Under the pieces are notes generated by a model. The model saw nothing but the letters and a program-made list of their open reading frames with translations, was not told the origin of the DNA and did no database searches. A program made the translations under genes and the position numbers. A stretch of 36,131 nucleotides of DNA, taken from a phage. Where the stretch lies: assembly GCA_018175075.1 (NCBI GenBank), contig GCA_018175075.1_4100.3, one strand, 5' to 3'. Shown here one piece after another: positions 2,236 through 30,820 of this stretch (position 1 is the first letter of the stretch; each line of letters starts with the position of its first letter).

Positions 2236-2478
2236 ATGAAAGTACTATCTGAATTAGAAATGTATCATAGATTTAATAAGTACTATCATTTACTTAAGCC
2301 TATACAGAGGATTAAATGTCCATTTGAAGAGAAACAGGTTTTAATCTATGAGCACAAGTTCTTTGTATCATTAGGTACAGATCAACAAGAGTACTATTTG
2401 ACGTTGTACTTGATTACATTAATAGATTTAATTTACTATAAAACCAAACAAGCTAATAAAGAGAAATATGAAAACTAA
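2236..2478 (+). CDS. hypothetical small protein, family A
   Basis: Motif SLGTDQQEYYL; start moved from track 2203 to first ATG after upstream TAA (2232-2234). Confidence 0.55.
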   Translation: MKVLSELEMYHRFNKYYHLLKPIQRIKCPFEEKQVLIYEHKFFVSLGTDQQEYYLTLYLITLIDLIYYKTKQANKEKYEN

Positions 2479-2812
2479 TATACAACTCAAGGTATATAAA
2501 TCATTTGAACATACATATATCAAAAGTAGTCTATGTAGAGATGTAATGGATTACAAGGGTAAGCCATTCACAATTACTTATGATTCTTATGTTGATGATT
2601 TATATATATCATTTGTTAATTACGAAAATAAAATATACAAGCACGTTGATATTAAAGATTTAAGTACTTTATCACCAGAGGAATACTTTCAGGAATCATT
2701 AGTATGGGATTTAGAGTTTCCTATGCCATTAGTACATAAGATGATAGTACTAATGAAAGAATCTAAACAGGAGCCTAATGGTGATTATGAAGAACACACA
2801 GTTGAGTATTAA
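2468..2812 (+). CDS. hypothetical protein, family B (FQxS motif)
   Basis: Motif EEYFQESLVWD; C-terminus ends VEY like gene 11848-12219. Confidence 0.65.
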   Translation: MKTNIQLKVYKSFEHTYIKSSLCRDVMDYKGKPFTITYDSYVDDLYISFVNYENKIYKHVDIKDLSTLSPEEYFQESLVWDLEFPMPLVHKMIVLMKESKQEPNGDYEEHTVEY

Positions 2813-3182
2813 AAGTACTGATAATATTAAGAGTTATACAAGCTCAAGTACTGTGACAATCGAAGTGAATTCTATTAATGCTGGTAATGCAGTAGATAAG
2901 TTCTTTATTGCTCAAGGGTACAGGAAAGATATTCATCAATATTGTTCAGTATATGGGGAGTACAATAGTACTGAAGATATAATTTATTGGTCAACACATC
3001 AAGATTATCTAACTAAAATTGGAGTCCCAGATGTTAGTACTTTATCTGAAGAAGAATACTTTCAGTACAGCTTAATATGTGATGTACCTATACCTTTAGG
3101 GTTAATCAAGGGTATACAGGAAGAGGTTCATAAGCTTAAATCCATGAGTAAAGGTACTTTCATTAGAACAGTGCAATACTAG
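2778..3182 (+). CDS. hypothetical protein, family B
   Basis: Motif EEEYFQYSLICD; alternative start ATG 2787. Confidence 0.65.
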   Translation: MVIMKNTQLSIKSTDNIKSYTSSSTVTIEVNSINAGNAVDKFFIAQGYRKDIHQYCSVYGEYNSTEDIIYWSTHQDYLTKIGVPDVSTLSEEEYFQYSLICDVPIPLGLIKGIQEEVHKLKSMSKGTFIRTVQY

Positions 3183-3241
3183 CTTGACAGTACTTTTCAT
3201 TACTGATATAGTACACTAACGTTAATCATAGGGTAAAAATT

Positions 3242-3487
3242 ATGTTAAATTTTTTAAATTTCCTTATCGTTTTGTGTATTGTTCTTGGGATTGCACCATT
3301 TGTATTGTATTTCATGGATTCAGATGAAATGCAGAAGATGAATTGTACAAGGACAGGACAGAGTAGAGAAGAGACGATTCTTATGCCTGTTACGGTTATT
3401 GTTAACAACATGCCCATTACAAACATGGTCCCTACCCTAACGACAACGTACCAGTACTCTTGTGCTGACGGAGAGAGGTGGAGATGA
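3242..3487 (+). CDS. small hydrophobic (putative membrane) protein
   Basis: Hydrophobic N-terminal stretch FLNFLIVLCIVLGIAPFVLYF; first ORF downstream of promoter at 3184. Confidence 0.5.
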   Translation: MLNFLNFLIVLCIVLGIAPFVLYFMDSDEMQKMNCTRTGQSREETILMPVTVIVNNMPITNMVPTLTTTYQYSCADGERWR

Positions 3488-3804
3488 AATTTAATATAGC
3501 AAAAACATCGAGTATATGTATTTTTGGTTATGCAGAAGAGTTAGGTGATATTGACATTCTTTTGTACAAAAAGGATGGTGTTATGCATTTCAAGTACCAG
3601 GATGAAGAGGCAGACAATTATCTTTTACCTAATTTAGTACAAATGCAGGAAGAGGAATTATTCCAGTACAGCTTAGTATACGACATTGATATTTGCACGA
3701 TGCCAGTACTAATTAGTATTCAAAAAGTGATGCTCGATATGTATGATAAGCTAATACAAGGTACATCAGGGAGAATCATTGAAATCGATATACAAGACAA
3801 TTAA
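3484..3804 (+). CDS. hypothetical protein, family B
   Basis: Motif EEELFQYSLVYD; GGAG RBS before ATG 3484 (track extends to GTG 3478). Confidence 0.65.
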   Translation: MKFNIAKTSSICIFGYAEELGDIDILLYKKDGVMHFKYQDEEADNYLLPNLVQMQEEELFQYSLVYDIDICTMPVLISIQKVMLDMYDKLIQGTSGRIIEIDIQDN

Positions 3805-3997
3805 TCAAGAATGGAAGACCCAAAAGTACAGGGAATTCAACAGGAATTTTACAAAAGATGCATTGAATTTAAAAACAACAGAGTTTGATATGTTTATTTT
3901 TCTTGGAACACGTTCACAAGAACAATTTGTTCATTATTATATAAATTCGTTGCGAACGGAGATAGTATGCAAAACACAGGGTATTATAAAAAGGTAA
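3779..3997 (+). CDS. hypothetical small protein, family A
   Basis: Motif FLGTRSQEQFV; apparent TTG start with GGGAGAA RBS, no in-frame ATG until codon 38. Confidence 0.5.
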   Translation: MKSIYKTINQEWKTQKYREFNRNFTKDALNLKTTEFDMFIFLGTRSQEQFVHYYINSLRTEIVCKTQGIIKR

Positions 3998-4739: not shown

Positions 4740-4943
4740 ATGCAAAAGATTAATACGATAACATTAAATGCATTACAGGATTCATTATTAGATAGTATTA
4801 AGATGTATTACAATATACATTTGAAGGGTGGTATTGATAATTACGATTATTATTTGAGTTTAATTACATTTGAGCACCTTTCAGTACAGGACAGGATTTT
4901 ACATCCTACAAATCCTAGGTATCCATCGATAGGTAAATTATGA
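4740..4943 (+). CDS. hypothetical protein
   Basis: 67-aa ORF after 148-bp gap; coupled (ATGA) to downstream gene. Confidence 0.45.
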   Translation: MQKINTITLNALQDSLLDSIKMYYNIHLKGGIDNYDYYLSLITFEHLSVQDRILHPTNPRYPSIGKL

Positions 4944-5488
4944 ATGAGATAGAGTTATTAGCACACAAGATAAGTACAATAATGCTTATCCTCAATAACA
5001 ACCATCCTATATCGCATATAGATGGAATCCTGAGTCAGAGGACAGGTGGTAGTTTATATTTGTCCATAAACGCAGATATCGCAAGGAAATACATTGATAT
5101 TGATGTTGAAATCGAATATGATACAACGGGGATTGTTGATGTAGGTGCATTAATCAGTTCAAATCCAGTATCAGCATCCCCATTGACCAAAGATGTTAGT
5201 ACAGGATTCGAAGGATATTTGTGGTACAATACCAATGATGATTATTTTATATATCAGCATTCCAATACAAATTATGATGAAGACAAATTTCAGTTCATAG
5301 ACCCTTATGATGAAGCTGAAGTATTTCAAAAATCATTAATCACAAAACCGCATGAGATGATGTATCTAATGTTATTCAGTACAATGCATTTGAATCCATT
5401 AATTAAAGGTTTAAAATTTTATATTCAATTAAATTTAGTCCATGTAGTTTATGATTTATTAATGCAAGGATATAGTTATGAAGTATAA
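4940..5488 (+). CDS. hypothetical protein, family B (divergent)
   Basis: Motif EAEVFQKSLITK. Confidence 0.6.
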   Translation: MNEIELLAHKISTIMLILNNNHPISHIDGILSQRTGGSLYLSINADIARKYIDIDVEIEYDTTGIVDVGALISSNPVSASPLTKDVSTGFEGYLWYNTNDDYFIYQHSNTNYDEDKFQFIDPYDEAEVFQKSLITKPHEMMYLMLFSTMHLNPLIKGLKFYIQLNLVHVVYDLLMQGYSYEV

Positions 5489-5789
5489 AATGATGTATAC
5501 CCCAGATATGATTTATGTTGAATTAGAAGATGATGACGATGGGTGGAATTTGATTTATTCAAGAAGTTCAGGTTGGTACATGGCACATTTAAATGATTCG
5601 ATAGTTACAGATTATTTTGTAGATTTCAATACATTATCCGATGAAGAATTGTTCCAACAGCAATTAGTGATTGACACGGGTGGTTATGATGTCTTATTAT
5701 TAAAAAAGATACAGAAAGCTGTTATTGATTTTAAGCCCATGATATGGCAAAGGAAATATTATGACCTCGAAGTACCGTACCAGCAATGA
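5478..5789 (+). CDS. hypothetical protein, family B
   Basis: Motif DEELFQQQLVID; AAGGA RBS. Confidence 0.65.
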   Translation: MKYKMMYTPDMIYVELEDDDDGWNLIYSRSSGWYMAHLNDSIVTDYFVDFNTLSDEELFQQQLVIDTGGYDVLLLKKIQKAVIDFKPMIWQRKYYDLEVPYQQ

Positions 5790-6327
5790 AATTCAGTACA
5801 CCTACGCTAATGCAATCCTTATGGGACAAAAGTTAGCTTGTATTGTTGCATCCTTATATAATGCCCAGAAATATCACAAGCGTCATTTCCACAAATGTAT
5901 TGGTATTATTCCATCGAAGTACAATACATATATTGCGTGCACGAGTCATTTTGATAAACGATTCAATACACCAGATATACCAAATGCCCGTAGTGTTATT
6001 GGTCTTTTGGATTTCGCACCTGGTGCTGTTATTGGAAAGAATGATTTAGAGTACGCATGGTATAATAAAAATTCCCCATTAGTAATGGTAACATATGATA
6101 AAGAAACGAACAAAACAATAGAGTACAATACATATAAATCAGAGGAAGAATTTTTCCAAGGTTCAATGCTTGTACCAGTGCGTTTGTTATTTTATAATGT
6201 CATAATGAGTACAGTACACAATAGTCCATTACACAAGAATCACAAAATTAATTTCAATTTTTGTGCTTATGCGATTGATGGTGTGTATGAGTGTTTAATG
6301 GAGGTATTGAGTTATGAAGCTGAATAA
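5761..6327 (+). CDS. hypothetical protein, family B
   Basis: Motif EEEFFQGSMLVP. Confidence 0.65.
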   Translation: MTSKYRTSNEIQYTYANAILMGQKLACIVASLYNAQKYHKRHFHKCIGIIPSKYNTYIACTSHFDKRFNTPDIPNARSVIGLLDFAPGAVIGKNDLEYAWYNKNSPLVMVTYDKETNKTIEYNTYKSEEEFFQGSMLVPVRLLFYNVIMSTVHNSPLHKNHKINFNFCAYAIDGVYECLMEVLSYEAE

Positions 6328-6655
6328 TACATTTGATATTAATAAGTTAAGAGAATGGTTTTATAGTATTGAAATTGAAGCCATCCCGTATCATAGATAT
6401 GAACAATATAATTTAACCAGTATTGATATCCGTGAGTTGTACGCGTATTATCAAAGTGCATTAGAGATGCATAAGATATTTTTGAGTACAGATTTTGTTC
6501 TAAATTACAATTTTGAGGAATTTAATAATTATAATTTAGTACAGAAATATGTAGTAGCAAAGTACATGTACCTTCAAGGAATTACAAGTATAGTTGAATT
6601 TAATACAGTTCTTGCTTTAGTTGAGGTAATTTTATGCAGTACATGTATGATTTAG
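6314..6655 (+). CDS. hypothetical protein
   Basis: 113-aa ORF; GGAGGT RBS; no clear family motif. Confidence 0.55.
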   Translation: MKLNNTFDINKLREWFYSIEIEAIPYHRYEQYNLTSIDIRELYAYYQSALEMHKIFLSTDFVLNYNFEEFNNYNLVQKYVVAKYMYLQGITSIVEFNTVLALVEVILCSTCMI

Positions 6656-7140
6656 AGTTCAGCTTAGATGCTGCATTTAAATATGTTCACAAGATAGAAA
6701 CAATATACAGTACATTATGTGCAATAAAATCAGTAACAGAAGAGCTTGATGTTGGTGAAAAATATCAGGTATGGAATAATACATTTTTAAATAAAGAACG
6801 TTGCTCTACGGGGTTTAATATTTTAACATTTAATCCCAGCAATTGTTACCCAGAGAAGCATGAACGTTATCCGAATGACGACATGTGGTTTGAGTACAAA
6901 GAAGATTGTGATATGTCGTTCATTGAAGTTCCTGATGATTTTAATGCACAAGATTTAACAGACGAGTGGTGGTTCCAGCAGAATTTAGTCCACGATGATA
7001 TTGATTTATTTTTTTATGTAGTATTTAAAATGCTTTATCACAACAATATAGTACAAGATAGTGTATTTTTTTCATGTCTATATATTGATGATTTGTACAA
7101 TGAAATTCAAATCAACATGCCCATAACGCCTGTATCGTAA
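6634..7140 (+). CDS. hypothetical protein, family B
   Basis: Motif DEWWFQQNLVHD; GAGGT RBS. Confidence 0.65.
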   Translation: MQYMYDLEFSLDAAFKYVHKIETIYSTLCAIKSVTEELDVGEKYQVWNNTFLNKERCSTGFNILTFNPSNCYPEKHERYPNDDMWFEYKEDCDMSFIEVPDDFNAQDLTDEWWFQQNLVHDDIDLFFYVVFKMLYHNNIVQDSVFFSCLYIDDLYNEIQINMPITPVS

Positions 7141-7155
7141 GATATGGGCTTTTTT
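7119..7155 (+). terminator. possible rho-independent terminator
   Basis: GCCCATA / TATGGGC 7-bp stem, 17-nt loop, then TTTTTT; overlaps stop codon of 6634-7140. Confidence 0.4.
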
Positions 7156-7165
7156 CGTTTTGGTA

Positions 7166-7194
7166 TTGACATAGAAGACCAAAGCTGTTATCAT
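7166..7194 (+). promoter_or_regulatory. sigma70-like promoter
   Basis: TTGACA (7166-7171), 17-bp spacer, TATCAT (7189-7194). Confidence 0.6.
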
Positions 7195-7222: not shown

Positions 7223-7735
7223 GTGAGTTTCATAATCCCAAGTACATACGAAGATGCATCAAGTGCAGTTCATAAGATTCATTATATTTTTAATTTAATT
7301 ATTAAATCTGCAAAAATTAAAATGTATGCACCTCTTGTGACAAATAATCGAAATGAAGAAATTTTTATTAGCACAGACAAAATTATTTTTCCATATTTCA
7401 ATGAAGATAGATTGTGGTTCATACATTTAGCTGCATTACAAAAATATAAGATGTCAATTCGTAATAATTTGGTTATACCGTTATATCATCCCGATATTGG
7501 AGAGGATGAGTATTTTCAGTACAGCACAGTACACCGCCATGAAGATATCTTTGCTGCTATGCTTATTGCTAAATTGAACACCGTTGATTTGGAGCAGTAC
7601 AAATACAATAATAAATCATGTAAGATCATAATCCCTGCATTCATAGCTCTTTATGATTATGTGGTGCATAACATAAAAGATGATACATATGCTTTCAATG
7701 AAGAGTATTTGGATTTTTTTAAGGAGAACATATGA
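7223..7735 (+). CDS. hypothetical protein, family B
   Basis: GTG start 8 nt after AAAGGAGAA RBS (track extends to ATG 7193 inside promoter); motif EDEYFQYSTVHR. Confidence 0.6.
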   Translation: MSFIIPSTYEDASSAVHKIHYIFNLIIKSAKIKMYAPLVTNNRNEEIFISTDKIIFPYFNEDRLWFIHLAALQKYKMSIRNNLVIPLYHPDIGEDEYFQYSTVHRHEDIFAAMLIAKLNTVDLEQYKYNNKSCKIIIPAFIALYDYVVHNIKDDTYAFNEEYLDFFKENI

Positions 7736-8271
7736 GCAGTACAACAGTATCAAAAGTACAGAAAGCAATGTCATTCAATGAAATTGGTACATTTAAAGAT
7801 AAGATCATTGATTGCCTTGAATACATGATTTGTAGTAATATCGAAAGTATCGAGATATTTAACAAGACAAATCGCTCTTACCATATGATGTACATTGCAA
7901 ACAATAATGGTATCATTCCATTTATTTCGGATAGTACAATATGGTACGCATGTGATACGAAAAAAACCACAATAGGTTTACATTTATTTGAGACACATTA
8001 TGATCTAATTATTCCTGAACATTGTATGCAAGAAGAAGAATATTTTCAAATGCAATGTATACATTCACCATTAGTGTTGTTTAGTTTATATATTATACCT
8101 TATATCACCAAATGTGTTCATGAGAATAAAGCTCCGTGGAATCATGAATTTGTATCGTTGAAGTTATTGTATAATGTATTAGTAGAATATTATGATTACA
8201 GGCACAATGGTACAATCAGTGATGTATGGGATTTTGAATCGCTAAGGGTGAAAACATACACAGGTGAATGA
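7732..8271 (+). CDS. hypothetical protein, family B
   Basis: AAGGAGAA RBS; ATGA overlap; motif EEEYFQMQCIHS. Confidence 0.7.
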   Translation: MSSTTVSKVQKAMSFNEIGTFKDKIIDCLEYMICSNIESIEIFNKTNRSYHMMYIANNNGIIPFISDSTIWYACDTKKTTIGLHLFETHYDLIIPEHCMQEEEYFQMQCIHSPLVLFSLYIIPYITKCVHENKAPWNHEFVSLKLLYNVLVEYYDYRHNGTISDVWDFESLRVKTYTGE

Positions 8272-8887
8272 TATGACCAGAATTAAAATGTATGATTTGA
8301 TGCAGTACAGTAAAATTGCCATTCCAGTGCTTAATAAAGTGCTGGATGCATTCATTGCCAAATACCCTGAGAATTCAGTGTTATGTATTCCATTTAGTGT
8401 TCCAGATAAAGATGATATATTCCAAGTGAATGTCAGTACACGTGGTATTACATTGCAGCAGAAATATATGGATACGGAATATTATGGAATAAAGTTGGAT
8501 TCAGTACAGGGTTCTAAATCAGCCTATGATTTTTTTGTTCCTAATAACATCGAGTCATGGGAAACAAACATTTCAAAGAAAGATGAAAATGATGTTCCTA
8601 TTAGTGGTGTGTTCAACAATAAAGTTTTTTATTATTACGAAACCGACAAATTCCCTGAAGAGTTATATTACAATTCAGAAATGAATGAAGATGTAGATGC
8701 ATTCATGTTTCAATTATCTTTAGTACATGATATCATTGATGTTCAAGAGTTAAGAGCAGAAATCAATTTAGCTAAAGAGTTATCGGACATGCTGCCACCG
8801 TTTAGTATGCTTTTTTGTGAAGGTGGTTATTTTTCAAAAGAAGTGTTTGAACATTTCGTAGATGTTGTAAAAGGGTTGGATATATAG
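8264..8887 (+). CDS. hypothetical protein, family B
   Basis: Motif DAFMFQLSLVHD; alternative start ATG 8273. Confidence 0.65.
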   Translation: MNDMTRIKMYDLMQYSKIAIPVLNKVLDAFIAKYPENSVLCIPFSVPDKDDIFQVNVSTRGITLQQKYMDTEYYGIKLDSVQGSKSAYDFFVPNNIESWETNISKKDENDVPISGVFNNKVFYYYETDKFPEELYYNSEMNEDVDAFMFQLSLVHDIIDVQELRAEINLAKELSDMLPPFSMLFCEGGYFSKEVFEHFVDVVKGLDI

Positions 8888-9091: not shown

Positions 9092-9607
9092 ATGCATCAA
9101 CACAAGCATCATTCATATGATTTTGCAATTAACATTATGAAGTTCATTCGAGCGTTGGAGGATGGGAAGCTTAGTCATAAGTACACCAAAGTAGGTGACA
9201 ATTGGTTCAGAAATGATGATGAGTTCAGAAGTCATAAGATTGTTTACAGCAATAATTACAGTGCCAATTACCTACAAGATGTAGTGATGTGTTTTGAATA
9301 CGTGTTGCAGTTCAGGGGTTCAATCCAGGATGAGTTGATGGAGCACATGTACATCCGATACCTTCCAATGCTCAAAGATGAAAATGTATTATTAAATTCA
9401 ATATACCAACGAGTTCGTGAAATTGAGTGCAGGGATATATTAGATACAGAAGAATCGTATTTCCAGCAATCCCTGATTTATGCACCTGATTTATTACAGG
9501 TACATAATTTGTTTAATACATTACGTCAAAACATCAGTACAGACATATTTTTGTCATTATCGAATTATGATACATTTGTCAAAGATTTAGAGGAAATAGG
9601 TTTATGA
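9092..9607 (+). CDS. hypothetical protein, family B
   Basis: Motif EESYFQQSLIYA; GAGGT RBS. Confidence 0.65.
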   Translation: MHQHKHHSYDFAINIMKFIRALEDGKLSHKYTKVGDNWFRNDDEFRSHKIVYSNNYSANYLQDVVMCFEYVLQFRGSIQDELMEHMYIRYLPMLKDENVLLNSIYQRVREIECRDILDTEESYFQQSLIYAPDLLQVHNLFNTLRQNISTDIFLSLSNYDTFVKDLEEIGL

Positions 9608-9948
9608 GTCGATTTTCGGTTTATATAGTAAACGTCAGTAAAGATGGTAGTTTAATTGAATTTGATGTAGTTGATAACAATGATAATTCATATGGTATTA
9701 AGGTACAGGACAATGATGTACAGTTCAGTACAAGGACAAATTTTGAGAATCCAGTCCAAGTTCCGAATTTCATAGAAGATGAAGCTGCACGATTCCAATA
9801 CGAAACGGCATATGACAATGTACATATGCATATTATTATGCAAACGAGTTTAGTTCAATTAGTTCCTTTGTTCAGACAAAATATATATGTACATGAAGTG
9901 TCGATTAATGGCATTCAAAGTTCCGTTTTGTTCGGTACAAATATGTAA
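9604..9948 (+). CDS. hypothetical protein, family B (divergent)
   Basis: ATGA overlap; motif AARFQYETAYD. Confidence 0.55.
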   Translation: MSRFSVYIVNVSKDGSLIEFDVVDNNDNSYGIKVQDNDVQFSTRTNFENPVQVPNFIEDEAARFQYETAYDNVHMHIIMQTSLVQLVPLFRQNIYVHEVSINGIQSSVLFGTNM

Positions 9949-9958
9949 GGAAAGTACA

Positions 9959-10510
9959 ATGAGTTCAATGAGTTTATTAGATACATTAGAAAAAGACAGA
10001 AGTGCAATTAAGCGTTTAAAAGAGCAAGTACAAAAGATTGTATACAACGTTGATAAGTTTGAAGTCCCAGGAAGATTTGGTGATATTTCCCATACGGAGA
10101 TCAAATCCCTTAAGTCAGATTTGTTGATTAAAAATAAAAATGGGTTGATTTTAGTTTTGAGTTCAGATATGATGGGGGCAACACATAGTTATAATGCAGT
10201 ATCGGTGCGTTCAGAGTGTGAAGGTATATATCTATCACAGGGTTTCAATAGCGAGACACAGGTTTGTTTTTGTGATGCAGTACATGACCCTATGAAGTTC
10301 ACGAGAAGTGAAGCCCAAGCGTTATTAGAGCTATCAGACGAGAGTTTGTTTCAGTACAGTACAATGTATGACAATGATAAGCTTCGTTGTATGTACGCTG
10401 TAAAGCATTATACACAGGAGTTTTCTGGATTTGCATACCTTTTAGTTAGAACCAATACCAGATATATTGATATGTTAGAAGATTACATCGATAAAGTTGT
10501 TAATGTATGA
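9959..10510 (+). CDS. hypothetical protein, family B
   Basis: AAGGAAAG RBS before ATG 9959 (track extends to 9887); motif ESLFQYSTMYD. Confidence 0.6.
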   Translation: MSSMSLLDTLEKDRSAIKRLKEQVQKIVYNVDKFEVPGRFGDISHTEIKSLKSDLLIKNKNGLILVLSSDMMGATHSYNAVSVRSECEGIYLSQGFNSETQVCFCDAVHDPMKFTRSEAQALLELSDESLFQYSTMYDNDKLRCMYAVKHYTQEFSGFAYLLVRTNTRYIDMLEDYIDKVVNV

Positions 10511-10532: not shown

Positions 10533-10709
10533 ATGCTGATGAAAGAGTTATTTGAAGATCAGTTCAATACATATGTGGATAATATTCTTTATTCCAGCCG
10601 TGCTAGTCAACGAGGAAATCGTGCTTACAATATAGATTACCTATTAGTGGTGCTGAGTTCACAGTACACCAATGCGGTACAAAGGGTTTATTATGAAAAG
10701 TGCAAGTAA
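10533..10709 (+). CDS. hypothetical small protein (58 aa)
   Basis: ATG ORF below track size cutoff, found by manual translation; overlaps next ORF. Confidence 0.3.
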   Translation: MLMKELFEDQFNTYVDNILYSSRASQRGNRAYNIDYLLVVLSSQYTNAVQRVYYEKCK

Positions 10710-11113: not shown

Positions 11114-11138
11114 AGACGTTTCATTTTGACAGGCCGCT

Positions 11139-19654: not shown

Positions 19655-19664
19655 TTATAACACA

Positions 19665-21863: not shown

Positions 21864-22389
21864 GAATGTAAAATGCATTACTGACATTTGTATAAAATTA
21901 ATGAAAATTTTCATTAATCCAAAATACAAAAAACGTTCATTACATCATAATATTGATGAGCATTGTACCATTAATATACTAGGTAGTATTCTTGATGTAA
22001 AATATGATGGTAAAATGTTATTCGGTATAAGAGAAGAGAAAATAGATGATGCATTCTTTTCCTGTAAAGATAAATTTGAACCTTCTGATTATAAAGTAAT
22101 TATTCGTGATGATAGCATCTACATTAGTAGTGATTATTCAAATTACTTCGATAAAATATACACTGAAAACGTTGACTACCATTATGAAATGATAGATTTA
22201 CCAGTAACAGACATTGATATGGAGAGAATCAAATTTTCATTATCAGATAATGAGTACTTAGGTATACAAACATATTATTCACTACAAGGAAAGATTCCAC
22301 CTGCTATGTATATAAGGATTGAGATTGGTAATGTATTCAATGATAAGGTTATATCAATTGCTGATAAAATATTGAGGGTTGAATTATGA
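21847..22389 (+). CDS. hypothetical protein
   Basis: 180-aa ORF; AGAGGG RBS; no clear motif. Confidence 0.55.
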   Translation: MYIENENVKCITDICIKLMKIFINPKYKKRSLHHNIDEHCTINILGSILDVKYDGKMLFGIREEKIDDAFFSCKDKFEPSDYKVIIRDDSIYISSDYSNYFDKIYTENVDYHYEMIDLPVTDIDMERIKFSLSDNEYLGIQTYYSLQGKIPPAMYIRIEIGNVFNDKVISIADKILRVEL

Positions 22390-22949
22390 ATATCAATGAT
22401 TACCAATTTCATAGGCTTGAATTTCGTCATTGTGTTGCATTTGCAAAAACATTGATGTGCATCATTGACACTCTTTCATCCAAACAATTTCGTAAGGATA
22501 ATGATTTATTTCTGAAAAAAGGTCGTGTAACATCAACCGATATCGGTATTGAACTATTTGTTGATATCAGTGTTGATACCGGAGACAGTACAAGGGTTGG
22601 TTGTATAGGTCATATTGGTACACATTGCTTCACATGGAATCCAAATACAAGTCAAGTGCGAATTGATTATAGAAATTCACGTTGGGTTGATCTTAGTACT
22701 GAATCAGATTTAGAATCAGCTATGTTCCAGCTAAGTTTAATTCACAATCCTAATGAACTTCTTTACATTATTACTTTCAGTTATCTGTTACAAAACTACG
22801 ATAAACCATCAGGGTTTTTCATAGAATCGGATATAGAAGAAATTATGGAAGAGTTTCCTAGTTTAAAGGATATTCTGGAAGAAAAAGATTTCTATGAAGA
22901 CTTCAGAGATTTATACGACATGCACTTGGAGTTATTTAAGAATGGATAA
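22386..22949 (+). CDS. hypothetical protein, family B
   Basis: Motif ESAMFQLSLIHN. Confidence 0.65.
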   Translation: MNINDYQFHRLEFRHCVAFAKTLMCIIDTLSSKQFRKDNDLFLKKGRVTSTDIGIELFVDISVDTGDSTRVGCIGHIGTHCFTWNPNTSQVRIDYRNSRWVDLSTESDLESAMFQLSLIHNPNELLYIITFSYLLQNYDKPSGFFIESDIEEIMEEFPSLKDILEEKDFYEDFRDLYDMHLELFKNG

Positions 22950-23460
22950 AGATGATATTCTAATTAGACTAATTAATAGTTTAATAAAGTTCTCAAATAA
23001 TGATGTCGATACATACAAAGTGGGGGATATTGAATTTAAATCATTTGGTATGTACGGTGAGGATAAAACATATTATGCGTCAATGAAATTTCAAGATTTT
23101 CACGAGATGTTAATATCGTTATCATATGAAGATGTTGATCCAAGATGGAGTTCCAGTATTTCACTATCGAGAATGGTAATTCGTAGTAAGCATCGTTATA
23201 TTTCGTCAAAGAATACTCCTAACTTGATTAATATTGTCTTGAATGAAAATACAAATCCCCTATCTAAACATGATATCGTACCGTTAACCGATGAAGTTCT
23301 TTTTCAATTGAGTACCATTTGTGATGAAGATGTGATATCATGTATGAAAATTTATGAGAAGGTTGGGAGTGATATTCCCATGAACTATTACCTAACTATA
23401 GATGGAACGTACCTTCGAGATGAGGTTCTAGCGTACATTGACAGTGTTTTACCAAAATAA
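22942..23460 (+). CDS. hypothetical protein, family B
   Basis: Motif DEVLFQLSTICD; start at ATG 22942 overlapping upstream stop (track 22894). Confidence 0.6.
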   Translation: MDKDDILIRLINSLIKFSNNDVDTYKVGDIEFKSFGMYGEDKTYYASMKFQDFHEMLISLSYEDVDPRWSSSISLSRMVIRSKHRYISSKNTPNLINIVLNENTNPLSKHDIVPLTDEVLFQLSTICDEDVISCMKIYEKVGSDIPMNYYLTIDGTYLRDEVLAYIDSVLPK

Positions 23461-23481
23461 AGACCCGTATGGGTCTTTTTG
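23459..23481 (+). terminator. rho-independent terminator
   Basis: AGACCC gtat GGGTCT hairpin followed by TTTTT, directly after stop at 23460. Confidence 0.7.
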
Positions 23482-23491
23482 TGTTTATGGC

Positions 23492-23520
23492 TTTACAAGA
23501 GCATTCAGGTGTGTTATACT
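23492..23520 (+). promoter_or_regulatory. sigma70-like promoter
   Basis: TTTACA (23492-23497), 17-bp spacer, TATACT (23515-23520). Confidence 0.65.
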
Positions 23521-23547
23521 TGATTTTAACTAGAGTTGGAGGAATCT

Positions 23548-24114: not shown

Positions 24115-24695
24115 ACCATATCAGAACTAAAATTTTGAGACTCATGCATGACATTGCAGAACTTTCAGAGATTCATGACATTACAGAAATTGTTGAATTT
24201 GATAATTATCGACTGAAAATTGAAAACAAATCCAAACATCGTTTTGGTTCAGTTCAGTTGGATGTATATAAAACTTATGAATTTTCTAAAAAAATTAAAA
24301 GTTCATGGGATACGATTACTATGTACATTCGCACATCCAGAAATCGTGAACGTATTGGTTCTATTTCTTATAATATGGTATTTGCGAATGCATTACATGA
24401 AAAAATGAATAAAATTGTAGAATCTAATTTCAGTGAAGATGATGGTTTTATTGGTTTGGAAGTTCCACCAGAATTAGACCAAAGTGAAGATATTCGAGAT
24501 GCATTCATTTTCCAGAAATCATTGTTGGACAATTACAAAGAATTCGAGTACTTAATGCTTTGTTACGATACTGCAAAAGTTCTTGATTGTGGTGAACTAG
24601 TTATGTACAATGATTTTATCAATTGCAAGACTGATGTTCTGAATACACTACTTCAAAATATAGAATCTGTTAAGGAAAAATATGAACGCTTATAG
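24111..24695 (+). CDS. hypothetical protein, family B
   Basis: ATGA overlap; motif DAFIFQKSLLDN. Confidence 0.6.
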   Translation: MNHIRTKILRLMHDIAELSEIHDITEIVEFDNYRLKIENKSKHRFGSVQLDVYKTYEFSKKIKSSWDTITMYIRTSRNRERIGSISYNMVFANALHEKMNKIVESNFSEDDGFIGLEVPPELDQSEDIRDAFIFQKSLLDNYKEFEYLMLCYDTAKVLDCGELVMYNDFINCKTDVLNTLLQNIESVKEKYERL

Positions 24696-25260
24696 TTATA
24701 TGACAGAACGCCATCAGTTATTATATGATATCAGTAAAAAAATGCTATCAATTGTTGGTAGTGCGAAAGAAATTGAAAAACAATATCTCATCCGTGATGT
24801 AGCAATTTCATCTAAATGTTGGTCAAATGAATATTACGACCACGGTATTCTTACTATTTCTGGGGCCAGAAATATTTGTATTGTAAAAAATAAAAGTAAA
24901 AGTAATGAAGAGTGTGAGATTAGAACCGATATACAAATTAAGGATGATGGAAGTTTTTCACATCACCCATTCCATATTAGTACTGTTGGTGTTTTATATA
25001 ATATTAAAGTTCTATTCGGTGATGAAGAGTATGTGTTAAAAGCTATCAATCCAGATTCAAGTACAGTTGAAGAAGAACTGTTCCAGATGAGCACTGTTAT
25101 ACCTGAAGAGGTTCTTAGTACTGTTATTTTTTGTAGTTTAATTTATCATGAATACAAAAAGTACCAGTTCGATTTCCACATGTTAGGAACGTACATCTTC
25201 AATAATTTGAATGTAGATCGTTTAAAAGCATTAAATTCAGCAATGGATAAGGTGCTATAA
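24682..25260 (+). CDS. hypothetical protein, family B
   Basis: AAGGAAAAA RBS; motif EEELFQMSTVIP. Confidence 0.65.
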   Translation: MNAYSYMTERHQLLYDISKKMLSIVGSAKEIEKQYLIRDVAISSKCWSNEYYDHGILTISGARNICIVKNKSKSNEECEIRTDIQIKDDGSFSHHPFHISTVGVLYNIKVLFGDEEYVLKAINPDSSTVEEELFQMSTVIPEEVLSTVIFCSLIYHEYKKYQFDFHMLGTYIFNNLNVDRLKALNSAMDKVL

Positions 25261-25688: not shown

Positions 25689-26194
25689 GTTTATTAAATG
25701 CACGCGAATTGGTTGAGATGTATGAGATTTTGTCTTCATATAAAAATTCTCATGGAGATGTGATTCTCGACAAAAAGTTCCATGTCAGTGTTGAACATAT
25801 ATCAAATATAGATATGATTTCTTTGGTGGAAAGTAATAAGTCAGGTCTTGAACGCGATATCATGCGTTTGATTTATATTCCCAAACCATCATATACTAAT
25901 GATAGTTCAATTAGTAATGAGACATTCATGTATAGTCCCGGTACGGATTCTACTATAGTATCGCTGTCCAATAAATCAATGGATACTTTCCAATTCATAT
26001 ATACCAGTACTGATAACATTGAAGAAATTGAATTTCAAAACAATACATTAAGTCCATGTAGTAGTGTTATAACCTTTATGTCATATCTATGGTCAACTAA
26101 AACAAGTGCTGTTGTATATAGTTCAAATTATACACAAGATAGTATTGTTGAATCATATAAAGTTCTAAAGGAATACTATGAAAATAACAAATGA
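25685..26194 (+). CDS. hypothetical protein (family B-like, divergent)
   Basis: ATGA overlap; weak motif EEIEFQNNTLSP. Confidence 0.55.
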   Translation: MSLLNARELVEMYEILSSYKNSHGDVILDKKFHVSVEHISNIDMISLVESNKSGLERDIMRLIYIPKPSYTNDSSISNETFMYSPGTDSTIVSLSNKSMDTFQFIYTSTDNIEEIEFQNNTLSPCSSVITFMSYLWSTKTSAVVYSSNYTQDSIVESYKVLKEYYENNK

Positions 26195-26759
26195 TTTTAT
26201 TAAAAGTGTAGTACACCCTATGCTTAGTATTATGAAAAAAATACAGAATCTACCGGAAGATAACGATTACAAGTTTAATCGTTTTGATTCAGATGTGTTT
26301 TGTATTGAAATTGAAATTAATAACAATCGCAATTTACATTTAAAATTCAAAGAATCTTCGAGTCCGTACTACAACTTTGATATGAATTTTAAAATAGATA
26401 CTGACATTGAAGAAAACATAATATCAAATCATACTAGCAAAAATGGTTTTATGCATAGAACTACTATGTACAATAATAAAAATAGTATTATATCTAAATG
26501 GAATCAACAATTCACTAAAATTTGTGAAATTGAATATAATGATTTTGGTGAAGAGAATTACTTTCAGTTAAGTACAATTCATGAACTTCCACCGTATGAT
26601 TATGTTAAAACATGGTTTGATATTCATAATATAATTGATGATGCAATCAAACTTCCATTTGGTGTGTCAATATCATATACTGCTCCTAAAACATTTGTTT
26701 TTACTGAAGATATGATTATGAAAAAGATATGGGCAATTATCCCACTTATGATGGATTAA
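26178..26759 (+). CDS. hypothetical protein, family B
   Basis: AAGGAA RBS; motif EENYFQLSTIHE. Confidence 0.65.
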   Translation: MKITNDFIKSVVHPMLSIMKKIQNLPEDNDYKFNRFDSDVFCIEIEINNNRNLHLKFKESSSPYYNFDMNFKIDTDIEENIISNHTSKNGFMHRTTMYNNKNSIISKWNQQFTKICEIEYNDFGEENYFQLSTIHELPPYDYVKTWFDIHNIIDDAIKLPFGVSISYTAPKTFVFTEDMIMKKIWAIIPLMMD

Positions 26760-26773
26760 ATTCGTACCAGGGG

Positions 26774-26802
26774 TTGACTCTGGTATTTTTGTATGATACA
26801 TT
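26774..26802 (+). promoter_or_regulatory. possible sigma70-like promoter
   Basis: TTGACT (26774-26779), 17-bp spacer, TACATT (26797-26802); followed by AAAGGAGAA RBS. Confidence 0.45.
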
Positions 26803-26820
26803 GTCCTAAAGGAGAATTTT

Positions 26821-27372
26821 ATGAACTACAATCATGATCTTTTTACATTATGTGCATCCAAATGTGTTGATGGATGGACAGATAAAATCAATACCATAAT
26901 TCATCGATATCTGGTCTTTAGTTCTCGTGCACGAAGTGAGGGGGCTATGGATTTCAAATATACACTATCTATTGATGGTGTAACTATCCATGCAGACGAA
27001 GAACGTCTGAGCATTAATTTGTATGATTCCTGTGTATTTGCTATTCACCAAAAGATGGGGAAAGGATGGGGTTGTAATAACATTAACTCAAAAGCTATCT
27101 TTTGGGTTGGTCACCACCAGACAGTACTTGATCCTTCAATCAAATCTAATCTTTTATCCGATAATATGGTTTATGATTTATTGTACTCCGAAGAACAACA
27201 TTTTCAGTTAAGTACATTACATGATCTGGCACAGTACGAGGATTGTTACAAAACTTTAGAACTATGCCATTCCCTTGAACTTAAAGATAAATTGATACAA
27301 GTTTACCCTTCATTCTTTCATGAAGAAGTACAAAGTACACTAGATCATATTTTATATGGATACGATAAATGA
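26821..27372 (+). CDS. hypothetical protein, family B
   Basis: AAAGGAGAA RBS; motif EEQHFQLSTLHD. Confidence 0.7.
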   Translation: MNYNHDLFTLCASKCVDGWTDKINTIIHRYLVFSSRARSEGAMDFKYTLSIDGVTIHADEERLSINLYDSCVFAIHQKMGKGWGCNNINSKAIFWVGHHQTVLDPSIKSNLLSDNMVYDLLYSEEQHFQLSTLHDLAQYEDCYKTLELCHSLELKDKLIQVYPSFFHEEVQSTLDHILYGYDK

Positions 27373-27971
27373 GAAAAAGTTATCAAGAAGCTATTGACTT
27401 AATTCGTGAAGTTATCAAGGTGGCTCCTGCTGCTATTGAGTTCAAGAAGTCCATATACAAGAAGTATGGTCCAATGTCGAGTATGTGCTTTCAAAAGAAA
27501 CGTAGTGCATATACTACACAGTACTGGAATGATTCTATCATCCTGAGCAATGAGACTCAGCGTATTTTATCTCTAGAATCTGAACCTACTGATTACGGGG
27601 AAGGGAACATTTGTGCACCTGATTATGATGAAATTAACTTCAACTGCGGTGATTTTGAAACAACATTATTACTTCATGAGGGTTATCCAGAAGGTGATGT
27701 ATTAGCTGAGTACAATCCAAAAACTAAAATTCTCAAAAGAGGAATCCAGTTCACTATTAATAACAAAGATGATGTTCAAGCAGCACTGATGCAACTGAGT
27801 ACAAGTGAACCTATCACTATTAGTGTAGAAGAGTTATGGGGAATTATTTCAGTACTCAATGAGTGCTATAAAGTAAAATCATTGCGTAAACACAGCATTA
27901 TATTACATACCAATATGGCAAATATAAAATGTAAGCACATTCAAGAAATGGTGGTTCCAGATGGACTTTAA
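27369..27971 (+). CDS. hypothetical protein (family B-like, degenerate)
   Basis: ATGA overlap; weak motif AALMQLSTSEP. Confidence 0.55.
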   Translation: MRKSYQEAIDLIREVIKVAPAAIEFKKSIYKKYGPMSSMCFQKKRSAYTTQYWNDSIILSNETQRILSLESEPTDYGEGNICAPDYDEINFNCGDFETTLLLHEGYPEGDVLAEYNPKTKILKRGIQFTINNKDDVQAALMQLSTSEPITISVEELWGIISVLNECYKVKSLRKHSIILHTNMANIKCKHIQEMVVPDGL

Positions 27972-28545
27972 AGAAATTGAAAGTAAATTAAAGTACTTCA
28001 AAGATATCAAACTTCTTTGGGAAAAGTATAAAGTTGATTACAATTTCAGTGATGATGACACTGTAAAAACAATTGAGATTAATATCAAAATCAAGTTCAA
28101 GAATAATAATTATGGTGAAGTAACCTTAAATCATACTGGTATATCACTCAAGGACTATGATGGTTCAACACTCGCATATTTTGACTTCACACCAGAACCA
28201 GATGAAACACTACTTAGTGAGATAAATTCCTATGACATGGAAGTGTTCGGCGGGAATCCGTTACTGTTCCGACTTTCTGAAGATTGGAGTGAAGAATACT
28301 ACACTTACAAAGATGGTGTAGTACTTGACATTAATGGTGAAGTTGTGAATGACTTGGAAGAACGCTTGTTCCAAGAATTGTGTGTTTCAAATACTTCATA
28401 TGCATACAATCATATCCTTGACATGTTTGATTTATATAGTAAAATAGATGCTGAAATGAATGCACATGGTATTCATTATCTTACAATCAACGACTATGCT
28501 CAACTTGAAACTGTAGTGAAAGCATTGACTAAAGTACTGAAATAG
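27961..28545 (+). CDS. hypothetical protein, family B
   Basis: Motif EERLFQELCVSN. Confidence 0.6.
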   Translation: MDFKEIESKLKYFKDIKLLWEKYKVDYNFSDDDTVKTIEINIKIKFKNNNYGEVTLNHTGISLKDYDGSTLAYFDFTPEPDETLLSEINSYDMEVFGGNPLLFRLSEDWSEEYYTYKDGVVLDINGEVVNDLEERLFQELCVSNTSYAYNHILDMFDLYSKIDAEMNAHGIHYLTINDYAQLETVVKALTKVLK

Positions 28546-28554
28546 GAATGAAAT

Positions 28555-28968
28555 ATGAAACTGTATCATGCGAGTACTGTAAAAATTGATAACTTTTATA
28601 TCCCGTATGGTGGTCTTCATATGGGAGGTAAACACAGTGCTTTGGAAGCTGCATTACGCAAGCTGAGAAGCCCACTGAACGTAGTAGACGCATGTACAGT
28701 ATACTTGCATACCTTAGAAGTTGATGTTGATAACGTGCTTCTGTGTGAAGATTTAGGCAGTGATGATGAGTGGCGTTCACTTATTGAGAATTGCACTGCT
28801 CAAGGTTATGATGCTGTTCAGTACAAAAATGATTACGAGCCAGACAATGTTCCTAGCTTTATGATTTGGGATGCATCTAAAGTTCGCATCATTGAAGTTG
28901 ATGCTATGCATATGGATGAAGCTGAAATGATTATCGAAGATTTTCTTGATGAATATGAAGGTGTATAA
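28555..28968 (+). CDS. hypothetical protein (composition outlier)
   Basis: 137-aa ORF; AGGAATGA RBS; no family motif; visibly more G+C and CTG/GCG codons than neighbours (by eye). Confidence 0.6.
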   Translation: MKLYHASTVKIDNFYIPYGGLHMGGKHSALEAALRKLRSPLNVVDACTVYLHTLEVDVDNVLLCEDLGSDDEWRSLIENCTAQGYDAVQYKNDYEPDNVPSFMIWDASKVRIIEVDAMHMDEAEMIIEDFLDEYEGV

Positions 28969-29504
28969 TGACTGACCCGATGGTAGCACTGGCACGTACT
29001 AAGTTACTATTAAAGATTGGTGAGATTTTTACGGTTCTTCTGTCCAATAATATTGATATTACTGAGCTAGATATTAAGCAACCGTGGGAAGTGACTATGT
29101 TCTCGGCGTTCCACCGATTGTCATATAAAGGTGAAAGTGTTCTTGATTTTAACCCTAAAGCAAAATTCATAGATTATGCTGCGTTGTACAGAGAGTTGCA
29201 CCGAAATATTTATTCCGGTTGTATAACCAATAACTTCAAAGAAATTAAAGTTCAAACTGCATCACATGAGTTCAATGATTTACTTTATCCAGAATTTAAT
29301 CTAACGGAAGAATTACTCTTTCAGTACTCGTTAATTCTCACAAATCTCGAAACGCTAGAGTACTACAAAGAGTTAGTAGATATTTTTATGAATACACGAC
29401 TTTCAAAAGATATTGTGATATTCTGGTATACAGAGCATGTTACGGAGGAATTGCTTACTGAATTTCTTCTAAATATGACAGCTATAAAGGAGAAGTTATG
29501 TTAG
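28968..29504 (+). CDS. hypothetical protein, family B
   Basis: GAAGGTG RBS; TAATG overlap; motif EELLFQYSLILT. Confidence 0.65.
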   Translation: MTDPMVALARTKLLLKIGEIFTVLLSNNIDITELDIKQPWEVTMFSAFHRLSYKGESVLDFNPKAKFIDYAALYRELHRNIYSGCITNNFKEIKVQTASHEFNDLLYPEFNLTEELLFQYSLILTNLETLEYYKELVDIFMNTRLSKDIVIFWYTEHVTEELLTEFLLNMTAIKEKLC

Positions 29505-29971
29505 ATATTTTAGGAAACATCGATACTGCAAATTATTTTATCCAGGACGCACTGTTCAATACAGTTCAACAAGGATTAGAAGTTCGTCATAACGTTTACC
29601 AAGGTGATGGTTATTTCGTTGATATTGTTGAGGCACGAAAGAATACGTTTAATGTTAACATTACAACACTGGGTAGACAGAACATTGCACGAATTTTAGT
29701 AAGTAAAGATGAAATTGTATTGAGATACAGTGCTAAGTTTATGTTGACTTATAAGAAAAAAACTGATATGTTCAGTACTAATTTATTTGATGAGCCATTT
29801 GACCTTGAAGATATTGAAGCTACTTTCTTTACTCAAAGTACTATGGTAAAATACACTGATGTTCAATTTTCATCAGACGTTATGTCTGAAACATTACAAA
29901 TGATCAAGGTATTATTTTATGCATTTGAGCAATTCAGAGAAGAAAGAAATAAGGTTAACAACCACAGATGA
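29498..29971 (+). CDS. hypothetical protein (family B-like, degenerate)
   Basis: AAAGGAGAAG RBS; weak motif EATFFTQSTMVK. Confidence 0.6.
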   Translation: MLDILGNIDTANYFIQDALFNTVQQGLEVRHNVYQGDGYFVDIVEARKNTFNVNITTLGRQNIARILVSKDEIVLRYSAKFMLTYKKKTDMFSTNLFDEPFDLEDIEATFFTQSTMVKYTDVQFSSDVMSETLQMIKVLFYAFEQFREERNKVNNHR

Positions 29972-30332
29972 ACTAATAGAGGCGATCACTAAGGAGTCAA
30001 AATACCACAAAGGGATTCGTCTATATTTTATAGATATTGGTTCAATGGAAGGCATATACATTTATGGTTCACAATCTTTATCTTATGATGTAATGCCAAA
30101 AAAACATGTAAAAATCTTTTTAGGTTCAGATAAAAAAACTTTCTTGACAATTAATGATAAAAACGTTATTATGAATTCGTTGGGCCATGATAAGGTGGAA
30201 ATTGATCTAAACACACTAGAGGATATTGATTTTTTTCAATACGAGTGTTTAGGTGTTGACTTACATGGCATTAGTAGCGATATGATAAAATCATTAATCA
30301 AATATTTCGAAGGTGTTCATAAATGTATCTAA
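29919..30332 (+). CDS. hypothetical protein, family B
   Basis: Motif DIDFFQYECLGV; start uncertain (53-nt overlap with upstream gene). Confidence 0.5.
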   Translation: MHLSNSEKKEIRLTTTDELIEAITKESKYHKGIRLYFIDIGSMEGIYIYGSQSLSYDVMPKKHVKIFLGSDKKTFLTINDKNVIMNSLGHDKVEIDLNTLEDIDFFQYECLGVDLHGISSDMIKSLIKYFEGVHKCI

Positions 30333-30820
30333 CTAAATCAATGAAAAATTCATTTGATAAAATTAAGAGTTGTCTTGATGGAGAAAATATTACAAGTGTT
30401 ACACAAACTGCTGACCAAATTCAAAGCAGTTCAAGTGATTGCACTGTTATTTTTGGTTTACATAGTCTGCGTTTATCAATAGTAAATAATATTGACAACA
30501 CTGCTATTGTAATCACACCATGCAATATTCAAAATGAGAATGGTGTATATCTTCATCACATGGGAACAGTATTTCACATTTTCAATTCAAACGAAAACAT
30601 TGTTAAGGAATACAATACTCTTAATATTGATTCAGGTGAATTATTTCAAATGAGTACTTTGTACTCATGTAATTTTACAGATACTTCATGTATTTTGCCA
30701 TTTTTCTTGGAAATTATTAAGAAAATGGAAAATTTAAAACGTGAATACAATAAAGAAATGGTTCCTGAAGCTATATTAAATATTACTAATGCTATAGAGA
30801 AGTATAATGCAGTGACTTAA
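30323..30820 (+). CDS. hypothetical protein, family B
   Basis: AAGGTG RBS; motif SGELFQMSTLYS. Confidence 0.65.
   Translation: MYLTKSMKNSFDKIKSCLDGENITSVTQTADQIQSSSSDCTVIFGLHSLRLSIVNNIDNTAIVITPCNIQNENGVYLHHMGTVFHIFNSNENIVKEYNTLNIDSGELFQMSTLYSCNFTDTSCILPFFLEIIKKMENLKREYNKEMVPEAILNITNAIEKYNAVT

Follow-up and report, generated by a model that had tools for sequence, protein, structure and literature searches.

What kind of gene family occupies positions 2468 to 30820 of a 36,131-nucleotide (nt) stretch of phage DNA (contig GCA_018175075.1_4100.3 of GenBank assembly GCA_018175075.1; the whole stretch is called the window here), and what might it do for the phage? A sequence-only reading had described this part of the window as a co-oriented array of about 45 paralogous genes with an acidic motif around F-Q-x-S, and had proposed that they form a diversified arsenal. 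Our computational follow-up establishes that 41-43 paralogous genes in a tandem array form a real family here, and we tentatively regard their products as putative early, non-virion, diversified binders of host factors.

The FQxS family and its array

A regular-expression scan found the strict FQxS motif in 34 + strand open reading frames (ORFs) between 2468 and 30820, compared with 1.12 +/- 1.02 (maximum 6) expected by chance from 1000 shuffles per protein. The acidic form [DE][DE]xxFQxS was observed 23 times against 0.02 expected in the shuffles, and the three frames of the reverse strand of the same DNA gave only 1-2 motif matches each. Since these shuffle and reverse-frame counts are so low (1.1 and 1-2 against 34), composition or codon bias cannot account for the motif; an artefact of codon bias or low complexity is ruled out, and the motif stands as a family signal. 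A hidden Markov model (HMM) built from the 34 motif regions picked up seven more ORFs that lack the strict motif (starting at 5478, 6634, 7732, 11172, 12572, 13434 and 14344), and convergence was reached with 41 members. Every one of the 41 has F and Q in the full-length alignment A1, and the two residues are likewise invariant in alignments A2 and A4. The family consensus is [ST]-E-E-x-[YF]-F-Q-x-S-[TL]-[VI]-[YWH]-D, and the members are 103-207 amino acids (aa) long.

Pooling three profiles (their union) gives 43 members in the window, and three further ORFs (27961, 29498 and 29919) have degenerate motifs at the expected position that remain below threshold. Ten larger ORFs (17766, 21847, 23536, 25260, 25685, 27961, 28555, 29498, 29919 and 30863) are not counted as members, because jackhmmer and HHalign gave only weak collinear signals for them. 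The array of 'about 45' genes is thus real and was slightly overcounted, whereas the statement that almost every gene belongs to it was too strong: members make up 41-43 of the 68 ORFs in the span, and the non-members are small, or are 137-200 aa long with at best weak collinear HHalign signals. The bounds of the array were exact (first member 2468-2812, last 30323-30820), and every member lies on the + strand, as had been stated. The features of the array are listed below; HMM E-values refer to the family HMM seeded on the 34 motif-bearing ORFs, and SP27 and phage A4 belong to the same genus as the phage of the window.

2468-2812, +, member, short form, 114 aa, EEYFQES; HMM E 1.1e-17; phrog_13866
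2778-3182, +, member, 134 aa; HMM E 6.1e-21
3184-3212, +, σ70-like promoter TTGACA-17-TATAGT in the 59-nt gap 3183-3241; retained in SP27
3478-3804, +, member, short form, 108 aa; HMM E 4.6e-19
4940-5488, +, member, 182 aa; HMM E 8.6e-19
5478-5789, +, member, 103 aa, HMM-recruited, outside the seed; HMM E 2.4e-8
5761-6327, +, member, 188 aa; HMM E 2.3e-16
6634-7140, +, weakest firm member, 168 aa, HMM-recruited; HMM E 3.3e-4; F-Q aligned in A1
7128-7194, +, terminator hairpin (7128-7149), then σ70-like promoter TTGACA-17-TATCAT (7166-7194); gap 7141-7192; promoter retained in SP27 and phage A4
7193-7735, +, member, 180 aa; HMM E 3.1e-11
7732-8271, +, member, 179 aa, HMM-recruited; HMM E 5.9e-9
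8264-8887, +, member, 207 aa; HMM E 1.4e-10
9092-9607, +, member, 171 aa; HMM E 6e-16
9604-9948, +, borderline member, 114 aa; jackhmmer E 2.8e-4; HHalign 14%
9887-10510, +, member, 207 aa; HMM E 2.5e-17
11172-11690, +, member, 172 aa, HMM-recruited; HMM E 2.6e-8
11848-12219, +, member, short form, 123 aa; HMM E 4.7e-15
12219-12575, +, member, short form, 118 aa; HMM E 3.1e-19
12572-12931, +, member, short form, 119 aa, FQAA variant, HMM-recruited; HMM E 5.1e-9
12941-13432, +, member, 163 aa, 98% identity to phAPEC6 gp442c; HMM E 1.1e-20
13434-13904, +, member, 156 aa, HMM-recruited; HMM E 6.3e-10
13901-14344, +, member, 147 aa; HMM E 1.4e-18
14344-14832, +, member, 162 aa, HMM-recruited; HMM E 7.6e-18
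14810-15262, +, member, 150 aa, long-form structure model; HMM E 8.6e-22
15259-15573, +, member, short form, 104 aa; HMM E 7.8e-12
15878-16327, +, member, 149 aa; HMM E 4.3e-18
16324-16860, +, member, 178 aa; HMM E 6e-11
17215-17775, +, member, 186 aa; HMM E 1.1e-12
18374-18736, +, member, short form, 120 aa, short-form structure model; HMM E 6.3e-15
18726-19061, +, member, short form, 111 aa; HMM E 1.6e-17
19021-19605, +, member, 194 aa; HMM E 5.5e-16
19602-19631, +, σ70 promoter, 12/12 consensus TTGACA-18-TATAAT, flagged TG-extended by the scan; 59-nt gap 19606-19664; 12/12 site kept in SP27 and phage A4
19665-20141, +, member, 158 aa; HMM E 2e-18; phrog_12674
20138-20647, +, member, 169 aa; HMM E 3.3e-19
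20613-20975, +, member, short form, 120 aa; HMM E 1.4e-18
20959-21372, +, member, 137 aa; HMM E 1.2e-15
21360-21863, +, member, 167 aa; HMM E 9.6e-20
22386-22949, +, member, 187 aa; HMM E 9.5e-18
22894-23460, +, member, 188 aa; HMM E 7.9e-18
23459-23520, +, terminator hairpin (23459-23478), then σ70-like promoter TTTACA-17-TATACT (23492-23520); gap 23461-23535; promoter retained in SP27 and phage A4
24111-24695, +, member, 194 aa; HMM E 5.4e-10
24682-25260, +, member, 192 aa; HMM E 3.6e-15
26178-26759, +, member, 193 aa; HMM E 1.4e-17
26764-26786, +, terminator-like hairpin in the 61-nt gap 26760-26820
26821-27372, +, member, 183 aa; HMM E 4.1e-14
27369-27971, +, borderline member, 200 aa; seen only with the broader A2 profile
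27961-28545, +, possible degenerate member, 194 aa, DLEERLFQELCV; sub-threshold HMM match at the motif position; HHalign collinear, weak
28968-29504, +, member, 178 aa; HMM E 6.7e-12
29498-29971, +, possible degenerate member, 157 aa, EATFFTQSTMV; HMM E 0.21
29919-30332, +, possible degenerate member, 137 aa, EDIDFFQYECL; HMM E 0.12
30323-30820, +, last member, 165 aa; HMM E 1.6e-12

Predicted fold and relation to known proteins

The N-terminal halves had been described as mostly unrelated, an impression that arises because BLASTP connects only seven pairs among them. The profiles, in contrast, match nearly the full length of the proteins: in most database relatives the stretch aligned with the family profile begins at about position 4-11 of its 160 positions and ends at about 145-150. 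In an alignment of 105 sequences, conserved columns are found in the N-terminal helix (A10 and I13), the strands (Y65, Y71, I72 and Y74), the long helix (L118, Y126 and L127) and the last strand (F135), as well as in the motif (E103 86%, E104 87%, F107 and Q108 100%, S110 93%). AlphaFold2, supplied with this alignment, folds the 14810-15262 protein into one compact domain (predicted local distance difference test, pLDDT, 94; predicted template modelling score, pTM, 0.87), in which a helix (residues 3-21) is followed by seven strands within 28-91, short helices at 93-97 and 103-109, the latter carrying F-Q, a turn, a helix at 115-129 and a strand at 135-138. The model of the short form 18374-18736 (pLDDT 86, pTM 0.79) lacks the N-terminal helix but keeps the order of the other elements, and the two size classes (about 100-135 and 150-207 aa) thus differ mainly by N-terminal additions to one core. 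The predicted family fold runs from an antiparallel β-meander through a short helix with F-Q and the turn S-[TL]-[VI]-[YWH]-D into a long helix, and a strand closes it; long forms add the N-terminal helix. According to these models each protein is one homologous α/β domain, not a conserved motif joined to an unrelated half. The members are soluble and mostly acidic (median pI 5.0, median net charge -9).

The motif E-x-x-Y-F-Q-x-S resembles the cleavage site of the tobacco etch virus (TEV) protease, ENLYFQ/S. The family might accordingly consist of substrates or decoys cut at F-Q by a 3C/TEV-type enzyme, or of packaged proteins like those of the φKZ inner body, and inner bodies have been reported in the related phages 121Q and phAPEC6 (PMC5646251, PMC7247149). 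In TEV-type sites, however, the serine directly follows Q, whereas here it stands two residues on; the motif is in a confidently folded helix-turn, and the sole protease checked nearby is ClpP-type, so a TEV/3C-like cleavage site is rejected. Packaging is opposed by the virion proteome of phAPEC6, which comprises 62 proteins with no entry between gp347 and gp549 (PMC7247149). The phAPEC6 ortholog of 12941-13432 is gp442c, which falls in this empty range, so that by numbering the family was not detected in the virion, its inner body included; φKZ-type inner-body or virion proteins are likewise rejected, on the mass spectrometry table of this one phage. Both forms of this explanation taken together are extremely improbable, and there is moderate support for the products being intracellular, non-virion proteins.

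The family had not been recognised from its sequence, and database comparisons agree. Scans of all 41 members against Pfam and NCBIfam gave no recurrent match, only isolated single-member hits (E 0.002-0.01), and PADLOC-DB gave nothing meaningful for the same members, just two isolated single-member matches (E 3e-4 and 7e-3). The family profile has no match among the sequences of the PDB even at E <=10, the predicted domain has no convincing neighbour among solved structures, and no DNA-binding or known assembly fold emerged from the structure and domain comparisons. In PHROGs the same proteins are matched by 28 clusters, all of 'unknown function' (phrog_12674, phrog_13866, phrog_9317, phrog_15629 and 24 others), which cross-matches interlink; there, unlike here, they are split without a unifying model. 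Foldseek against predicted viral structures (BFVD) matched only uncharacterised proteins of RaK2-like jumbo phages. These came from 121Q, SP27, RaK2 (four proteins whose accession numbers are neighbours) and Serratia phage BF, with a weak match from GAP32.

A known parallel is Bacillus phage G, in which a zinc ribbon has expanded to about 35 copies (Iyer et al. 2021, PMC7824862). Both cases are lineage-specific expansions of a small protein in a jumbo phage with similar copy numbers, but the folds differ, and phage G has no convincing homolog of the FQxS family in the BFVD Foldseek search. Alignments A1 and A2 contain no conserved Cys column and no conserved Cys/His pattern; a zinc-ribbon-like expansion is ruled out by this lack of conserved cysteines.

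Distribution, divergence and selection in RaK2-like phages

The window is part of an Asteriusvirus (PBECO4/121Q-type) jumbo coliphage of the RaK2-like group: an 8-kb test stretch of it is 98% identical to Escherichia phages BF17, CRJP21, G17, PBECO4 and other Asteriusvirus, where the genes under the match all carry the annotation 'hypothetical protein'. Members of Asteriusvirus are jumbo myoviruses of about 350 kb within the RaK2-like group. In the BF17 record the window maps to about 25-61 kb, with a block of about 22 kb of small, individually spaced genes upstream and genes for a Dam-type methylase, RNA ligase, polynucleotide kinase, phosphatases, DNA ligase and a protease downstream. The Asteriusvirus genome is linear, with a direct terminal repeat of about 21 kb at its left end (fEgEco12, PMC13070987); given this repeat and the position of the window in BF17, the array would lie just inside, to the right of, the terminal-repeat region.

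When 1.84 billion cluster representatives were searched exhaustively with the profile, only 136 clusters matched at E <=1e-3, all of 65-222 aa and nearly all with the motif, many of them just 25-40% identical to any member in the window. A word-indexed homolog search gave only 22 close relatives, tblastn with a single member found 36 Asteriusvirus records among 50,697 phage genomes, and a pattern scan of IMG/VR found the 121Q genome alone. The members in other lineages link Munch-like Salmonella and Klebsiella aerogenes phages, EJP2 and the Alcyoneusvirus group (RaK2, K64-1 and Muenster). Scans of fetched loci with the family profiles gave the following numbers of members:

SP27: 43
phage A4: 44
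Salmonella phage Munch: 21 (18-20 with single profiles)
RaK2, one 50-kb stretch: 32
uncultured 361-kb contig AGFT01054919, 20 kb examined: 14
uncultured contig L011: 26 of 37 genes

Phage 121Q has 15 and 25 members in two overlapping fetched loci. In every sampled locus the family forms a tight co-oriented array, and in Munch and RaK2 its setting is the same too, with the methylase and RNA ligase downstream of it. The family is thus clade-restricted, and the same expanded array is present in other RaK2-like jumbo phages. In phage A4 (locus L009), a 470-aa gene labelled 'methyl-accepting chemotaxis protein' (31130-32542) is inserted in the middle of the array and HNH endonuclease genes (41568-41945 and 43881-44189) stand at its end, which suggests insertion activity in the region.

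An array of over 30 tandem genes in 121Q has been mentioned in print, in one sentence that calls the genes very similar and reads them as a tandem duplication (Hua et al. 2017, mBio, PMC5646251); the statement is repeated in a 2026 review (PMC13282480). The published array is most probably the present one, because members abound in the 121Q loci that we examined. That paper concerns the same phage group and neither defines a family nor describes its motif, structure, distribution, regulation or function, and genes called 'very similar' there are very dissimilar here, mostly about 10-40% identical. The RaK2 and CBB papers merely remark that some proteins are paralogs, the papers on Sharanji, UE-S1, RaK2, CBB and fEgEco12 contain no description of the family, and we found no paper in the literature that defines its motif, fold, distribution, regulation or function. 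Lineage-specific expansion of paralogs in a giant virus was already known, whereas the FQxS family and its apparent fold were undescribed.

Paralogs in the window share 9-55% identity with the reference member of the alignment, and they are ancient, not recent duplicates. The idea of a diversified set on a conserved scaffold is thus upheld, as one predicted fold at roughly 9-55% pairwise identity. The three-profile count within the genus is 43 in the window, 43 in SP27 and 44 in phage A4. SP27, which is otherwise about 97% identical, has reciprocal-best orthologs of 42 of the 43 members (median identity 97%); six genes (14810, 15259, 15878, 20613, 21360 and 28968) are only 65-80% identical between the two phages, compared with 95-100% for their neighbours. 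Single divergent genes among near-identical neighbours suggest allele replacement by recombination, and relative to SP27 such mosaic cassette replacements lie inside the array at 14810-16327, 20613-20975, 21360-21863 and 28968-29504. Phage A4 has orthologs of 33 of the 43 members in largely collinear order, with a median identity of 39% as against 70% for the non-family genes of the window. The ratio of non-synonymous to synonymous substitution (dN/dS) has a median of 0.25 relative to SP27, and pooling of 26 moderately diverged pairs gives 0.16 at the motif itself, with 0.38 for the part that precedes it and 0.27 for the part that follows. The genes diverge fast and are kept by purifying selection, which is tightest at the motif and loosest in the β-sheet part; the diversifying selection for which a test of the N-terminal halves had been suggested is not seen there (pooled dN/dS 0.38), with no positive selection over whole genes or regions.

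This pattern bears on two alternatives. According to the ratchet of Hua et al. (2017), the array could be filler, produced by tandem duplication after enlargement of the capsid, with most copies dispensable; PMC5646251 indeed reads the 121Q array of more than 30 genes in this way, known domains are missing from the members, and several ORFs beside them resemble decayed copies. It is disfavoured by dN/dS well below 1, intact ORFs, a stable copy number and conserved internal promoters, by the persistence of the family in RaK2, Munch-like and uncultured lineages, and by the age of paralogs that are roughly 9-55% identical, and we consider it quite improbable. The paralogs could instead have subfunctionalised within the phage, assembling among themselves, or with phage DNA or replication factors, in a chaperone-like or organising role for a 350-kb genome. 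Purifying selection, the stable number of 43-44 copies with collinear gene order across Asteriusvirus lineages, and conservation of the family across several jumbo-phage genera would all suit such a role. Yet within one genus the identity of positional orthologs goes down to 26-40%, and alleles are exchanged in a mosaic fashion, which is unusual for co-assembling housekeeping subunits and makes this explanation less likely; copy number also varies widely between genera (21, 32 and 43), and no DNA-binding or assembly fold speaks for it. A phage-internal role is thus unlikely, and we continue to prefer diversified binding of host factors.

The surroundings of the array have features of their own. 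A second tandem paralog family adjoins it upstream (window 52-2478), consisting of 11 overlapping ORFs of 64-91 aa with a common LGT[ND]xQE motif in the C-terminal half; in BF17 and SP27 a series of genes of about 70 aa carries the family on further upstream. Directly after the array lies an unlisted ORF (31339-31470) for a basic protein of 43 aa (MAKKVNNFVQKHMNEF...) that matches Pfam DUF7230 (E 4e-17), and a terminator-like hairpin (31448-31468) overlaps its 3' end. The array of contig L011 is likewise closed by a DUF7230 gene (48 aa, 20092-20238). Further downstream, a 326-nt non-coding stretch (34378-34703) begins with a promoter-like site (34374-34403; TATAAT, flagged TG-extended by the scan) and contains a GGTGAC...GTCACC hairpin followed by a T-run; this stretch has no tRNA and matches no Rfam family, and tRNA and Rfam scans of the whole window found nothing. 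About 20-25 kb downstream of the array in BF17 (locus L002) are a ClpP-family protease gene (25976-26668; Pfam E 4e-41) and two genes for calcineurin-like phosphoesterases (20003-20743 and 24318-25106), labelled Ser/Thr phosphatases in the record.

Probable transcription units and possible functions

The array is compact, with a coding density of 98%. Translational coupling had been proposed for all of its genes, and 53 of the 67 junctions do overlap (15 of them by exactly 4 nt), but seven gaps of at least 25 nt, the only ones of this length, split the array. Most of these gaps carry promoter-like and/or terminator-like sites. Intergenic DNA makes up 1.4% of the span, yet holds four of the 23 strong + strand promoter-like sites (binomial P = 3e-4). 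The promoters are kept at the corresponding gaps of SP27, and in phage A4 at three gaps with 11/12, 12/12 and 11/12 matches, beside proteins whose identity to the window orthologs ranges from 27-34% up to 78%. Pairs of terminators and σ70 promoters thus appear to cut the array into several units that would depend on host σ70, and expression is probably early, because strong σ70-type promoters stand in the gaps and are conserved in SP27 and phage A4. Another gap, 11114-11171, has a run of nine G (…GCCGCTGGGGGGGGGTCAAAAAAATT…) beside a TTGACA hexamer, which may be a slippage-prone tract or a sequencing-error hotspot; the genes around it (10533-11851) are among those with low identity to, or without an ortholog in, SP27 and phage A4.

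The explanation that we tentatively prefer can be put as a sequence of steps. Host σ70 RNA polymerase would read the array early from several strong promoters. Every gene encodes one small soluble protein, mostly acidic, with a single α/β domain as its core, and these products would remain in the cell and not be packaged. Between them the paralogs would form a diversified library of proteins that bind or inhibit host proteins, in the service of host takeover or counter-defence. A shared structural core, or a shared docking or ligand site, may come from the nearly invariant E-E-x-x-F-Q-x-S patch, and different specificities from the highly variable β-sheet and termini. The divergence from phage A4 and SP27, the mosaic alleles and the acidic products are consistent with an arms race; the polymorphic effectors of the sequence-only reading find no echo, since nothing points to toxin-like modules.

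Several points weigh against this explanation, whose weakest step, with weak support, is the putative binding of host factors: neither experiment nor homology ties a single member to defence systems or to targets in the host. The motif is inside the folded core, in a helix-turn, and may hence be purely structural; stable copy number and conserved gene order would also fit subfunctionalised housekeeping roles; and dN/dS does not exceed 1 for whole genes or regions. The total of promoter-like sites is no higher than the shuffled expectation, so that only their placement is informative, and the literature searched has no transcript data for this phage group. The absence from virions depends on one study, that of phAPEC6, and proteomics of the relative fENko-Kae01 found many non-structural proteins co-purified.

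The main rival keeps the variable sheet as a recruiting surface and gives the motif another task: E-E-x-x-F-Q-x-S would dock all paralogs on one machine, such as the phage ClpP-type protease with a host unfoldase, RNA polymerase or the replisome, to which the sheet would bring different substrates. Poxvirus ankyrin/PRANC proteins, in which a variable binder is coupled to a conserved ligase-docking motif, are a precedent. BF17 does have the ClpP-family gene about 25 kb downstream, but there is no link between this gene and the array, and we regard such a common adaptor role as unlikely.

For diversified binders of host factors, two kinds of known systems offer analogies. Dozens of divergent one-fold paralogs also occur in tandem near the genome end in the MGF360/505/110 families of African swine fever virus (ASFV) and in the ankyrin/PRANC and Bcl-2-like families of poxviruses, which act as host-range and immune-evasion factors. 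Those genes are early, as is inferred for the array; there is no sequence or fold relationship, and the host here is a bacterium. The pre-early block of T5 and the host-takeover or early blocks of SPO1 and T4 likewise encode small acidic proteins near the genome end behind host-σ70 promoters, but their genes are unrelated to each other, whereas the array has 40 paralogs of one domain. A bolder proposal, possible though doubtful, would make the array in phages what the terminal multigene families are in poxviruses and ASFV: about 40 putative binders on an undescribed fold, each coupled to a common hub by its E-E/F-Q/S patch, would use a hypervariable β-sheet to neutralise or redirect different defence or housekeeping proteins of the host, and so set the host range of RaK2-like phages.

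One uncharacterised family makes up about 7-8% of the genes of a 350-kb phage, and the same expansion has been retained by jumbo phages of several genera, whose hosts are Escherichia, Salmonella and Klebsiella; some of these phages are under development for therapy. Should the arsenal reading prove wrong, there would still be a defined motif, a clear operon map and a confident model that no solved structure convincingly resembles, and with these the question can be tested directly. If that reading is true, the array would in our assessment be among the largest host-interaction repertoires described in a phage; it would provide about 40 natural variants of one small scaffold for target mapping, and would be a determinant of host range and a likely source of new inhibitors of bacterial immunity and physiology.

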